64,000 nt of DNA from a virus (IMGVR_UViG_3300031853_000023:7254-71253); one strand, 5' to 3'. Positions 42,052 to 56,902 are shown, numbered from the stretch's first letter. The notes: generated by a model from the letters alone, not told the origin. A program made the numbers and translations.

Positions 42052-43089
42052 AAGAGTTAGTCTGGCCCTTAGCTACTTTTCCGCTAATCAGCGGGGTTGT
42101 CTATAAAGACAGCTAACGAGGTAGTCTTCTATTTAAAAATTTTTTTTAGACATTTTAGGATAATTTGAAATGTGAAATTTTTATAATATATAGAAGATAA
42201 TCTCGTGGGAAAAAACTACGATATTATCTCCAAAAAATTAAAGGAGATAAAATAAAGTGATAGGAATTTATAAAATTACAAATTTAGTGAATGATCATAG
42301 TTATATTGGATTATCTACTCATATTGAGGACAGATGGGAATATCATAAAAATCCATATAATTGGAATAGAGAAAAAAATAAATCTTTATACAAAGCAATT
42401 TTAAAATATGGTATTGAAAATTTTTCTTTTGAAATACTTGAATAGTGTTCTTCAGAAGAATTGGGATAGAAAGAAAAATATTATATTGAAAAATATAATA
42501 CTTATCATGCTGGTTATAATATGACTGCTGGTGGAGAAGATAATCAAGGTGATAGTCACCCAAGACATAAATTAACAAAAGAAGATGTTATAGATATTAG
42601 AACCAGATATGATAATCTTGAAAGAAAAAAAGAAGTTTATTAGTTGTATAAAGATAAAATTGGAGAAAGTGGTTTTTCTAAAATTTGGAAAGGTAACACT
42701 TGGACTTCTGTAATGATGGAAGTTTACACTCCATAGAATAAAAAATATCATTTACATGATACGGCAAACAAAGGTTCTCAAAATGGAAGATCCAGATTAA
42801 CTGAATAGGATGTAAAAAATATTCGATTAAGAAGAAAAAATGGTGAAAAATTATCTGATGTATATGCAGATTATGAACATCTTTTAACTAAAGGATCATT
42901 TACAAATGTTTGGTCATATCAAAATTGGAAAAATATTGTAGTTTAAACCTGTATCGACTATCCCTTTTGTCGGGGAGTACATCTCTTATTGATACAGAGA
43001 TGGAAATGGTAGCACCCTAAGATCTCAGTTAAAGCGTTAGAGAGAGGGTAAGAAATAGTCAGTGCCATTAGTGATAATGGAATAACATG
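42052..43089 (+). mobile_element. Group I intron in gyrB carrying a GIY-YIG homing endonuclease
   Basis: P1 pairs AAGGGU with GCCCUU and has a U.G wobble at the 5' splice site. P7 has 5' GACUAUC (42955..) and 3' AUAGUCAG (43065..). P9 hairpin CCATT/AATGG. Last intron nucleotide is G43089. Exon 2 restores the GyrB C-terminus (...KG|LGEMSPDE...LMGTQIIPRKRFIQQHS). Confidence 0.6.
42257..42946 (+). CDS. Intron-encoded GIY-YIG homing endonuclease (I-TevI-like) with 5 in-frame TAG
   Basis: GIYKITNLVNDHSYIGLS..RW..H..YNTYHAGYN. GTG start with RBS AAAGGAGATAAAATAAA. TAA at 42944..42946. Confidence 0.55.
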
Positions 43090-43271
43090 TAGGAGAGATG
43101 TCACCAGATGAGACTTCAATTTTAGTAGATCCAGATAAAAGAATTATTAAACAAATAACCGTGGAAGATGTTGCAGCAACTAATAAATTATTTGATGATT
43201 TAATGGGTACTCAAATTATTCCAAGAAAAAGATTTATTCAACAGCATAGTAAGGAGGCTCGCTATGACTGA
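43090..43271 (+). CDS. gyrB: gyrB exon 2 (C-terminal 60 aa)
   Basis: The translation matches the conserved GyrB C-terminal tail. TGA at 43269..43271. Confidence 0.55.
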
Positions 43272-43476
43272 AGATAAAAAAGAATTAATTGATGAAATTA
43301 TAGATTATATTAATTATTTATTAAAACATGCGCCAGAACAATACCCTGATTGTGATAAATGTTTAGAATTACGAGATTGTAAAAAATGCAAAGAAAATTA
43401 TAAAATATTACAAAGTCATTGGGAAGAACAAATGGAAAACGCACTTGGGAGGTTAAGAGAATGTCAAATGAATTAA
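43264..43476 (+). CDS. Small Cys-rich protein (70 aa)
   Basis: Strong RBS AAGGAGG then ATG at 43264. CDKC..CKKC. Confidence 0.35.
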   Translation: MTEDKKELIDEIIDYINYLLKHAPEQYPDCDKCLELRDCKKCKENYKILQSHWEEQMENALGRLRECQMN

Positions 43477-53949: not shown

Positions 53950-54474
53950 ATGAAAGCTGCTTATGTAAAATGCTTATATTGCGGCGAGCGTTTTAACCGC
54001 AATGACCTAAACATTCCTACAAAACAAGTATCTGCAAGAAGATATGCACATCTTTCTTGTTGGGAAAAACATCAATCAGAAATGTCAAAAGAAGAAAGAG
54101 ATATGGAAGCATTTTTTGAATATGTAAGAAATCTTTTTAAAGAAGATTATAATCATATTCTTACAAAAAAACTTGCAGAAAGATATGTAAAAGAAAATAA
54201 TTATAGTTATAGTGGAATGTTAAAAACTTTAAAATGGTATTATGAAAAAGAAGGACACGATATATCAAAAGGAAATGGAAGTATAGGCATTATTCCATAC
54301 ATATATAATCAAGCCTTAGAATATTATTATGCTCTATATAAAGCACAAAAGATAAATGCATCAAAGGATGTTTCTCAATATATAAAATCTCCTATAAGAG
54401 AAATCATGATTGAGTCTCCAAGAACTTTTGTGCCATCACCGCATTTATGGTTAGAGGAGGACGACGAAGAATGA
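53950..54474 (+). CDS. Zinc-finger protein (174 aa); possible helicase loader or primosome accessory by position
   Basis: CLYCGERF..HLSCW. Confidence 0.35.
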   Translation: MKAAYVKCLYCGERFNRNDLNIPTKQVSARRYAHLSCWEKHQSEMSKEERDMEAFFEYVRNLFKEDYNHILTKKLAERYVKENNYSYSGMLKTLKWYYEKEGHDISKGNGSIGIIPYIYNQALEYYYALYKAQKINASKDVSQYIKSPIREIMIESPRTFVPSPHLWLEEDDEE

Positions 54475-55736
54475 ACTCAAAATATTATGATGTTCAAAGC
54501 TGTATGCAAGTTATAGGAGATGTATTTATAAATCCAAATCTTTTAGATTTAGAAGAAAAATATAAATTTCACGAAGAAGATTTTCCGCAAGAATTTCATA
54601 AAATATTGTTTGGTTCTATCTATAATCTTCATAAACTTGGTGCAAAAGAAATCTCAGTAGAGGATATAGAACAATATCTTGAGCAAAGACCAAAAAAATA
54701 TTCTGTTTATAAACTTAATAAAGGTTCAGAATATCTTGAAAGTTTAAAAGAAATGTGTCAACTTGCGGCTTTTGATTACTACTATAATCGAATGAAAAAG
54801 ATGACACTTCTAAGAATGTATAATAAAAATGTTGGGATAGATTTATCTTGGCTATATGACCCTGATAATGTGTTAGATGTAAAAAAGAAAGAGGCTCAAG
54901 AAGCTTGGTTTGATAATACATCTATTATGGATATAGCTAATGTAATTAATGATAAAATTGATGATATAAAATCTAAATATGTTGACAATGCAGAAGAAGG
55001 GTTGATTCAAGCAGGAAATGGAGCAATGGCTCTTCTTGAAAGATTAAAAGAAAAACCTGAAATTGGTTATCCTTTATTTGGTAAACTTGTTAATGGTATT
55101 CATAGAGGAGCAAGATTAAAGAAATTTTATCTACGCTCCGCCGCAACAGGTGTAGGAAAAACTCGTTCAATGATTGCGGATGCTTGCTCTATTGCTTGTA
55201 ATCAAATTTATAATATAGAAAAAGGTGAATGGGAACCAAATGGCACTCGTGAACCAACTCAATTTATCACAACAGAACAAACAAAAGAAGAAATTCAACC
55301 TATGATGATTGCTTTCATATCTGGAGTTGACGAAGAACATATTATGAAAAGTGATTATGCAGAAGGGGAATGGGAACGAGTTGTCAAGGCCGCAGAAATT
55401 ATAGAAAGAAGTCCTCTCTATATAAAAATTCTTCCAGATTTTTCATTACAAGATATAGAAAACACAATTAAATTTGGTATTCGTCAAGAAGGTGTACGAT
55501 ATATCTTTATGGATTATATTCATTCAAGTATGAAAATCTTAAGTGAAATAAGTTCAAAAGCTGGAGTAAAAGGATTAAGAGAAGATAATATTCTATTTAT
55601 GATTAGTGTAAGATTAAAAGACTTATGTAATCAATATGGAGTATTTATAATGTCTGCAACTCAGCTTAATGCAGATTATATCTCTGCTCAACAATATGAC
55701 CAAAACTTATTGAGAGGGGCAAAAGCAATCGCTGAT
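54471..55736 (+). CDS. dnaB: Replicative DnaB-family helicase, exon 1 (3' end approximate)
   Basis: RBS GGAGGACGACGAAGA then ATG at 54471. Walker A SAATGVGKT and Walker B IFMDYIHS. The segment VFIMSATQLN..LRGAKAIAD corresponds to DnaB ..SQLNR..LRESGSIEQDAD. The frame then runs into non-DnaB sequence and ends at TAA 55857. Confidence 0.55.
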
Positions 55737-56902
55737 TGGACAAAGTTAATTAATGTTATATTGAATTTTTTTATTATAGATAGTGGAATAATTCCAGAAT
55801 CTAATTTAAAGGAGTTCAATTATGAAAAAAATTATTTTTACACAATAGCAAATAGATAATATTATTAATGATTATGTAATTAATAATATTTCAACAAGAT
55901 AGTTAGGAATTAAATATAATGTTTCTAAAACAGTAATAAGTAGGGTTTTAAAAGAAAATAACATTGAATTAAATCATACCAATAGAAAGTATTTTGGAGA
56001 CTACAATAAATTTTAGAAAATAGATTCTGCTGAAAAAGCATATTGGTTAGGTTTTTTGGCGGCAGATGGATGTAATTATTCAAGAGCAGAAAATGCTTCA
56101 ATAATAATTAATATACATCAAAAAGATATATAGCATTTATATAAATTTCAAAATTTTATGAATACAAACGCATAGGTAAAAACTTTTATACAAAATCAAG
56201 GGTTCTCAAATAATACTCCTATGTGTAAAATTGTATTAAATAGCAAAAAATTATCTAAAGATTTAAGTAATGTAGGCGTTGTTCCTAAAAAGAGTTTAAT
56301 TCTTTAGCCTCCAAAAATTGAGTCAAAATTTTACTTGCCTTTTATTTTAGGATATTTTGATGGAGATGGTTCCATTTTTGAAACAAAACAAAAAAGTTTC
56401 GGAATATCAATAGAAGGAACAAAAGAAATATTGGAATGGATTAATTCAATATTAAATATATCATCACATTTAGAAAAAAGAAAAAAAAATGATTCTAATA
56501 ATTATTTTATTCGATGTGGTGGAATCAATAAACCTTATTTAATTATGAAATAGCTTTATAATAGTGTAAATACACATTTAGATAGAAAATATAACATTTT
56601 TAAAACTTTGGAAACAGTCGTCCTTAATGAAAACATTAAGTGATTATGATCCCGTGAATTGCTGGAAAACCCTTAGAGCTTTCTAAACTACAACATAGAT
56701 ATGAAACAAAATCAGGTGTGAATGTTAAAAAATTAGAAAGATTGGGTAATCAGCAGCTAAGATTCGAATAGAATAAAGTTCAACGACTATCCGGTGGCGC
56801 GGAGTACATCTAAAAGATGGAAGTGCGGGATACCTAAGTATTTTAGAAAAAATATATGGTAAAGATATAGTCTACTCCTTTATGAAAGTAAAGGTAGCAA
56901 GG
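55737..56902 (+). mobile_element. Group I intron in dnaB carrying a LAGLIDADG homing endonuclease (boundaries within about 10 nt)
   Basis: P7 has GACUAUC (56778..) and UAGUC (56868..). P9 is CCTTTA/TAAAGG (56876..56893). The intron's last nucleotide is G56902. The 4-nt string GATT occurs at both junctions, so the exact exon end is ambiguous. The intein alternative is rejected in noticed_but_rejected. Confidence 0.5.
55822..56643 (+). CDS. Intron-encoded LAGLIDADG homing endonuclease with an N-terminal HTH; 7 in-frame TAG
   Basis: RBS AAGGAG then ATG at 55822. Motifs YWLGFLAADG and LGYFDGDGSI. TGA at 56641..56643. Confidence 0.55.

Follow-up and report, generated by a model that had tools for sequence, protein, structure and literature searches.

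The window described here is a stretch of 64,000 nt of viral DNA (IMGVR_UViG_3300031853_000023:7254-71253), and our subject is the set of homing endonuclease genes (HEGs) that lie within introns of its replication genes and carry in-frame TAG codons. Four replication genes are interrupted, namely gyrB, a gene matching phrog_6721 (here called 'thyX-like'), dnaB and dnaE, and they stand in a + strand block of replication genes that runs from 30.7 kb to the end of the window and is nearly free of TAG. The exons, introns and intron open reading frames (ORFs) at these loci are as follows, with the pairing of the internal guide sequence (IGS) of each intron given where it was found.

40332-42051, + strand: gyrB exon 1 (Pfam HATPase_c, DNA_gyraseB and Toprim), ending ...RLKG plus U, 0 TAG, with a sigma70-like promoter at 40262
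42052-43089, + strand: gyrB group I intron, 1038 nt, IGS GCCCTT pairing with exon AAGGGT including a G.U pair, ending at G43089
42257-42946, + strand: HEG1, a GIY-YIG homing endonuclease ORF of 229 codons with a GTG start and 5 TAG (Pfam GIY-YIG at aa 5-90; phrog_7168, homing endonuclease, at aa 1-228)
43090-43271, + strand: gyrB exon 2 (LGEMSPDE...), KGLGEM being regained on splicing
43461-45800, + strand: gyrA, 0 TAG
49594-49822, + strand: thyX-like gene exon 1, from the PHROG match to phrog_6721 and continuity in relatives
49823-50805, + strand: thyX-like gene group I intron, 983 nt, IGS GCCAAT at +10 pairing with exon ATTGGT, ending at G50805
49979-50671, + strand: HEG2, an HNH-like/homing endonuclease ORF of 230 codons with 5 TAG (phrog_559, phrog_9084 and phrog_7140, which are HNH, homing and intron-encoded nuclease families, at aa 10-222)
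50806-51230, + strand: thyX-like gene exon 2, from comparison with intron-less relatives
54447-55736, + strand: dnaB exon 1 (Pfam DnaB and DnaB_C)
55737-56902, + strand: dnaB group I intron, 1166 nt, matching RF00028 with the ribozyme core at 56591-56894, ending at G56902
55822-56643, + strand: LAGLIDADG homing endonuclease ORF of 273 codons with 7 TAG (Pfam LAGLIDADG_3; phrog_4645 at aa 6-263)
56903-57181, + strand: dnaB exon 2, from comparison with intron-less relatives
61883-63209, + strand: dnaE (Pol III alpha) exon 1 (Pfam PHP and DNA_pol3_alpha), ending at U63209
63210-64000 and past the window end, + strand: 5' part of the dnaE group I intron, IGS GTCTCC at +18 pairing with exon GGAGAT
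63690 to the window end, + strand: GIY-YIG ORF in the dnaE intron, 0 TAG in the 102 codons seen

Uninterrupted orthologues place all four insertion points exactly (70 relatives for gyrB, 37 for the thyX-like gene, 71 for dnaB and 5 for dnaE), and in each gene removal of the insert restores both the frame and a conserved motif. With a slash marking the insertion point, the junction ...RLKG/LGEM is intact in the 70 gyrB relatives and splicing gives a TAG-free product of 633 aa; the 71 dnaB relatives read ...AKAIAD/KIDCG; the five dnaE relatives continue ...LPFWR/YLNKERVELGDIDIDL; and all 37 relatives that lack an interruption in the thyX-like gene read ...APLYW-W-KEMDTYK. Two relatives, L005 and L019, have an insert of ~1.03 kb at the identical point of gyrB. 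Inserts in the corresponding part of dnaB occur in seven relatives, and in four of these (L132, L136, L153 and L155) they lie exactly at the junction.

The features of the inserts themselves are those of group I introns. The last base of the 5' exon is U in all four genes, and the final base of the gyrB, thyX-like and dnaB inserts is G; the dnaE insert runs off the window before its end. An exact 6-bp complement of the final six exon bases, with G opposite U, is found at +14 in gyrB as well as at the positions listed above for the thyX-like gene and dnaE, and the three guide hexamers vary together with their exons, as P1 pairing of group I introns does. For the dnaB intron, at most 4 bp of P1 pairing was seen, and the class assignment comes from Rfam: the intron matches RF00028 over the full model at 75.2 bits (gathering 50, E=5e-19), and the relative L153 carries an ORF-less 400-nt intron at the same site that scores 51.1 bits. 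This match was recovered only in a small-region scan of a 1.2-kb stretch; scans of the whole window or of large stretches, at the gathering threshold and at E<=5, reported no intron, the long AT-rich input leading to loss at the filter, which is worth bearing in mind in first-round screens. In a small-region scan the gyrB intron had no Rfam match, as expected because its ORF splits the ribozyme core, and blastn of that core against phage records returned only short unannotated matches. It does contain a P7 element, GACTAT...ATAGTC, and shares P7 and other core motifs with the thyX-like intron. The dnaE intron gave only weak partial matches to RF00028. We regard the assignment of all four as group I introns as secure on these sequence features, and self-splicing is predicted. 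The suggestion in the preliminary description that endonuclease ORFs reside inside introns of replication genes is thus borne out for gyrB, the thyX-like gene and dnaB, given the exact insertions, the P1/IGS pairing in the first two, the terminal G and the RF00028 match in dnaB.

The three complete intron ORFs are interrupted by TAG and by no other stop. In HEG1 the TAGs are codons 63, 71, 129, 160 and 184 (positions 42443, 42467, 42641, 42734 and 42806); in HEG2 they begin at codon 95 and lie at positions 50261, 50354, 50504, 50525 and 50594; and in the LAGLIDADG ORF the first is codon 9, with three falling between its two LAGLIDADG motifs. Earlier counts of 5 for the first endonuclease and 7 for the LAGLIDADG ORF agree with ours, and that of 4 for the second needs correction to 5. 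Neither TAA nor TGA occurs in the frames of these three ORFs or of a fourth TAG-rich ORF, a TM-GIY-YIG gene described below, for which the chance is 1e-9 to 1e-12 given that 8-10% of off-frame codons are TAA or TGA. PHROG matches span nearly the full length of the three intron ORFs and cross the TAG sites (with Pfam matches for HEG1 and the LAGLIDADG ORF), and the family profiles continue through the TAGs rather than ending there, the outcome that the preliminary description had named as a refutation. Since the first TAG comes at codon 63, 95 or 9 (HEG1, HEG2 and the LAGLIDADG ORF, respectively), termination there would yield no active enzyme. These ORFs are intact endonuclease genes that would need TAG read-through, and their activity is predicted. 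The 3' end of HEG2 lies within the 5' strand of P7, its final codons spanning GTATCGACTATC, and the RF00028 match shares its first 53 nt with the LAGLIDADG ORF.

The genes that host these introns are free of TAG. Spliced gyrB, gyrA, the thyX-like gene, dnaB and dnaE exon 1 together have 0 TAG in 2,598 codons, compared with 17 in the 732 codons of the three intron ORFs (Fisher p=5.6e-12), just as had been claimed from the sequence at first reading. The avoidance in the exons is frame-specific, as the same exons contain 92 out-of-frame TAG triplets. The comparison of endonuclease and exon TAG density that the preliminary description called for gives the same contrast across the relatives: lineage-wide, there is 1 TAG in 45,605 codons of gyrB, 2 in 45,233 of gyrA and 2 in 29,393 of ligase, versus 60 in 6,612 codons of the GIY-YIG HEG family, 29 in 3,434 of the HEG2 family and 155 in 9,575 of the TM-GIY-YIG gene. 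TAGs also occur in non-HEG genes of the + strand module, with 4 in a GH25+CHAP endolysin, 3 in the ORF at 38580, 1 each in a wHTH gene at 48352 and an AAA_24 ATPase, and 2 in a DHH phosphoesterase.

The TM-GIY-YIG gene, immediately upstream of the thyX-like gene, differs from the intron ORFs in its setting.

48707-49597, + strand: gene for a protein with a transmembrane (TM) segment, a coiled coil and a GIY-YIG domain (Pfam GIY-YIG at aa 201-283), 296 codons, 12 TAG

Its second codon is TAG and its TAG density of 4.0% is the highest in the window; the count had earlier been put at about 14. A strong terminator-like hairpin at 48656-48691 lies immediately upstream of the gene, and the gene's stop and the thyX-like start overlap in ATGA. 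Syntenic orthologues are present in ~45 relatives, with 0-11 TAG each, a distribution that is not the patchy, fixed-site occurrence of a mobile element. The ORF at 48707 is therefore a conserved free-standing gene outside any intron and not, as first described, an intron-borne endonuclease. The identification of the downstream gene at 49594-51230 as thyX found no support in Pfam or PDB matches either, and that label was dropped.

The wider window, with a G+C content of ~29%, indicates a phage in which TAG is sense. ORFs of at least 100 codons cover 48.5 kb when TAG is a stop and 75.3 kb when it is sense, and fragments merge under the second reading, as at 21146-30574 (- strand), where a single ORF of 3,143 codons contains 69 TAGs. 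The late blocks at 117-11829 (+ strand) and 17899-30595 (- strand) have 146 TAG in 7,939 codons (1.84%). The DnaB protein is 43% identical to those of SPbeta-like Bacillus phages. IMG/VR has many relatives, sampled from rumen and gut, whose contigs measure 80-178 kb; the majority are TAG-recoded, with a standard code in L179-L182 and TGA recoding in L185 and L019. The mixture of codes, the sizes and the habitats sampled agree with the 'Agate' clade (Borges et al.), and the best explanation of the window is a Firmicutes-type phage of low G+C, probably from the clade to which the Agate phages belong, with TAG read as sense. No suppressor tRNA is present within the 64-kb window; a tRNA(CUA) is found in the tRNA array of a TAG-recoded relative, L199 (IMGVR_UViG_3300021431_000004). 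Exact-match searches for more of the window's own genome yielded a single contig, 8.4 kb long and from a strain variant.

The residue inserted at TAG appears to be glutamate. At 36 TAG sites in genes of the replication module, the residues of relatives are E 0.35, K 0.14, N 0.11, D 0.09 and Q 0.07; in the same alignments, true Gln sites have Q 0.46 and true Glu sites E 0.54. Log-likelihoods at these sites (Glu -84.0, Gln -99.6) favor Glu by 15.6 nats, and the late gene of 3,143 codons, with 51 sites, gives -125.5 versus -137.6 (12.1 nats), so that two independent gene sets, 87 window TAG sites in all, have site profiles of E 0.27-0.35 versus Q 0.07-0.14. In TAG-bearing genes, TAG occupies 19 of the 174 columns that are >=60% Glu and 2 of the 116 that are >=60% Gln, and it is found at invariant or near-invariant Glu columns. 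Reciprocally, 1,199 TAGs of relatives align with Glu in the window, a 3.9-fold enrichment; the positive control, alignment of the relatives' TGA with Trp, gave an enrichment of 34-fold. When only standard-code relatives are considered, 33 of 71 residues aligned to TAG are E and 6 are Q, and at the TAG site of the AAA_24 gene 111 of the 120 closest database homologues have E and 9 have Q. The alignment of TAG with conserved Gln that characterizes code 15 was therefore not seen, Glu being favored instead.

The tRNA evidence is less clear. Typing of the relatives' tRNA(CUA), that of L199 included, by similarity to 470 phage tRNAs and by variable-loop length was uninformative, and the features of the L199 tRNA are ambiguous; the tRNA(CUA) of a more distant relative, L049, is Gln-like. 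The D arm of the relatives' tRNA(CUA) may be Glu-like. We lean, with hesitation, toward TAG being decoded as glutamate and not glutamine in this phage lineage. The Glu-first route of Firmicutes, with GluRS and an amidotransferase, might enable such a reassignment. In the literature searched we found no TAG=Glu reassignment in any phage or bacterium, and phage TAG is treated there as Gln; the only reassignments observed by Borges et al. were TAG to Gln and TGA to Trp (bioRxiv 10.1101/2021.08.26.457843).

Whatever its meaning, the recoded stop in the HEGs appears to follow the code of the phage in which they reside. The HEG in the gyrB intron of L005 is 98% identical to HEG1 and has the same 5 TAGs, while that of L019, a TGA-recoded phage, is 62% identical, has 0 TAG and uses TGA for 6 of its 6 Trp codons, a contrast that speaks for HEGs having adapted to the code of whichever phage carries them. 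In three relatives further removed (DnaB identity 63-70%; own code not established), LAGLIDADG orthologues that occupy the same position in dnaB have no in-frame TAG. Occupancy of the sites is patchy: the gyrB intron is present at this site in 2 of ~76 relatives, and in 6 more a GIY-YIG HEG lies at another position within gyrB or next to it; the thyX-like intron is in 0 of 37; and dnaB introns are in ~7 of 78, four of them at this site. The intron HEGs thus show patchy presence at fixed sites among close relatives, as mobile elements do. Further introns at other sites were seen in dnaE of L163 and L167 (for example inside the motif ELGD/IDID), in gyrB of L070 and L077-L080, and in dnaB of L117, L119 and L127, and their HEGs have 0-6 recoded stops.

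A close strain variant, L161/L189 (JGI Ga0326512_10006566), can be compared with window positions 56320-64000. It is 99.7% identical from 58478 on and 93% identical over 56903-58473, and it contains a different dnaB intron, with other sequence upstream of exon 2. Its primase and DHH genes are separated by an insert of 692 nt that includes a GIY-YIG fragment. Mosaicism between this variant and the window is concentrated at mobile elements. The proposal that the introns co-evolved with the recoded lineage holds insofar as the HEGs track the resident code in L005 and L019; given the patchy introns and the different dnaB intron of L161, spread among same-code phages and lengthy residence in a single genome are equally likely.

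Several features bear on when the HEGs would be translated. Nine near-consensus sigma70-type promoters with a 17-nt spacer were found, all on the + strand and only in the replication module (30687, 39692, 40262, 48177, 48250, 51239, 51658, 53889 and 61850), eight of them, all except 30687, with an extended -10 (TG). No promoters of this type lie upstream of the late, TAG-rich operons or of the HEG ORFs, and the predicted distribution offers indirect support for the host genes being early. The Shine-Dalgarno sequence of HEG1 is inside a hairpin at 42224-42250 (z=-3.75) and that of the LAGLIDADG ORF inside one at 55760-55820 (z=-4.36); together with the ORF 3' ends that overlap the ribozyme core, these predicted structures seem to act as extra brakes on HEG translation. 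A 16-nt motif, TTTTTATWATATATAG, occurs exactly before the first late operon (127-142) and HEG1 (42178-42193) and, with one mismatch, before the LAGLIDADG ORF (55768-55783, + strand). With <=2 mismatches it has 11 matches in the window versus 2.6 expected, the motif having been derived from these same sequences, and the relatives show no conservation of it ahead of their TAG-bearing genes. We offer it only as a lead to a possible late promoter.

From these observations we propose the following course of events. The replication genes, with host-type promoters and kept free of TAG, would be translatable by the unmodified host machinery. Four of these genes host mobile group I introns, each with its own endonuclease gene and ribosome-binding site, and the HEGs share the dialect of the structural and lysis genes, with ~2% TAG spread throughout their catalytic and DNA-binding domains. 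Before the phage tRNA(CUA) acts, ribosomes on an intron ORF would end at the first TAG, between codon 9 and codon 95; such early termination would make no enzyme and would keep the ribosome off the ribozyme core at the ORF 3' end. Once suppression is on, full-length endonuclease would be produced. We infer that suppression comes later than expression of the replication genes and that the delay is good for splicing or for the phage. The idea of a temporal gate, put forward in the preliminary description, is plausible, and the explanation as a whole, in which intact HEGs written in the TAG dialect of the phage are held back until suppression within TAG-free early genes, strikes us as moderately probable.

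A number of observations weigh against this explanation. The AAA_24, DHH and one wHTH gene of the replication module contain 1-2 TAGs each, so suppression may not be strictly late and may already act during replication. The holin, a lysis gene, is TAG-free; the dnaE-intron HEG has no TAG over its first 102 codons; the HEGs of the relatives L077 and L080 are without recoded stops; and, as noted, the window has no suppressor tRNA. In addition, the TAG density of the HEGs is no higher than that of the late genes (2.3% versus 1.84%, p=0.39), with TAG/(TAG+GAR) likewise not significantly different in this window (p=0.19-0.39). As the HEGs sit at the late-gene baseline, an adaptive gate is not separated from relaxed selection, and neutral drift is a live rival.

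Under that neutral alternative, TAG builds up by mutation in any gene not needed before suppression, and dispensable HEGs drift to late-gene usage with no selection for a gate. It would accommodate the equality with late genes just given, the range of TAG counts in the HEGs of relatives from 0 upward, the absence of TAG from the portion of the dnaE-intron HEG that was seen, and the TAGs of the endolysin and other non-HEG genes of the module. It sits less well with the L019 HEG, which writes all six of its Trp codons as TGA, with the statistical evidence for preferential recoding of the Agate intron endonuclease (Borges et al.), and with the hairpins that sequester the Shine-Dalgarno sequences of two HEGs, which suggest selection restraining translation. 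On balance we hold a purely neutral origin to be unlikely.

A second alternative is that the introns and their HEGs came recently from other TAG-recoded phages of the same niche, so that the TAGs reflect the donor. The patchy occupancy at gyrB, the thyX-like gene and dnaB would be expected from this, as would the different dnaB intron of the near-identical L161 and the step in identity from 93% to 99.7%. Recent import is compatible with gated HEGs, however, because donors must use the same code, and the L019 orthologue is the same element adapted to another code. As an explanation to be set beside the gate, recent import seems to us doubtful, to about the same degree as the neutral one. That the intron ORFs are decaying pseudogenes and their TAGs true stops is very improbable and was rejected: degeneration is common in HEGs and the L153 intron is an ORF-less remnant, but frames of 229-296 codons have kept clear of TAA and TGA (P ~1e-9 to 1e-12), family profiles align end to end over the TAGs with TAG at conserved columns, essential late genes are interrupted by the same codon, and the 98%-identical HEG of L005 retains all 5 TAGs.

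Elsewhere in the window, the region at 11977-17898, between the two TAG-rich late blocks, has a raised G+C content of 0.35-0.41 and several TAG-free ORFs without a Pfam match, one of which encodes 478 aa on the - strand. At 30758-36634 (+ strand), a gene for an 831-aa protein with a major-vault-protein shoulder and repeat domains is followed by genes for an RNA ligase, an AAA_33 kinase-like protein and a metallophosphatase; each of the four is TAG-free, and together they resemble an RNA-repair set. A lysis cassette within the replication-strand block, at 36713-38514 (+ strand), consists of an r1t-type holin of 70 aa with 0 TAG and then the GH25+CHAP endolysin with its 4 TAGs.

The closest known system is that of the TGA-recoded Agate phages, in which an endonuclease encoded by an early gene's group I intron prefers TGA (Borges et al., bioRxiv 10.1101/2021.08.26.457843; Nat Microbiol 2022) and for which it was proposed that recoded stops block the endonuclease until late (Borges et al., bioRxiv 10.1101/2021.08.26.457843). 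The two share a homing endonuclease in a self-splicing intron of an early gene with recoded stops in the HEG but not in the replication genes, genomes of ~100-180 kb, Firmicutes-type replication genes, an origin in samples from ruminants and the gut, and close relatives that differ in their codes. They differ in that the codon here is TAG and not TGA, that three nuclease families occupy three introns, that no enrichment of recoded codons in HEGs over late genes is detectable in this single genome, and that TAG here appears to mean Glu and not Gln. Since Borges et al. already state the gate idea for Agate, the present case is a new instance of a described phenomenon, with TAG and several nuclease families.

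Similarities with other phages are also apparent. In the td intron of phage T4, delayed translation of I-TevI is needed for splicing, and early translation of the ORF harms it (Gibb and Edgell 2010, reviewed in PMC3073962). As in td, an early gene (nucleotide or replication) here has a group I intron with a GIY-YIG HEG in one of its peripheral loops and an ORF 3' end that reaches the ribozyme core, and the hairpins burying Shine-Dalgarno sequences resemble the ribosome-binding-site-sequestering hairpins of T4 homing endonuclease genes. T4 relies on late promoters and RNA structure with no codon reassignment, whereas here in-frame TAGs would add to or replace such control. The code 15 phages (crAss-like, Lak and phAss-1; PMC9523058, PMC10607447) likewise use TAG as sense in structural and lysis genes, mostly lack it in replication genes and encode a tRNA(CUA), which in our case is in the relative L199 and not in the window; their TAG aligns with conserved Gln, and the TAG of this lineage with Glu.

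These findings carry a published case, TGA recoding in a single family, over to TAG and, within one genome, to nucleases of three unrelated families. If TAG is indeed glutamate, then the intron endonucleases, lysis and structural genes would all be written in a TAG=Glu code, annotation with table 15 would mistranslate every recoded protein of such phages, and the claim that phages use TAG only as Gln would need revision. Sister phages have the same intron and HEG, adapted in some to TAG and in others to TGA, and the genetic code may therefore act on selfish elements, as on late genes, both as a timing device and as a compatibility barrier. The system is a tractable one in which to ask whether codon reassignment can substitute for control of the T4 type by late promoters and RNA hairpins.

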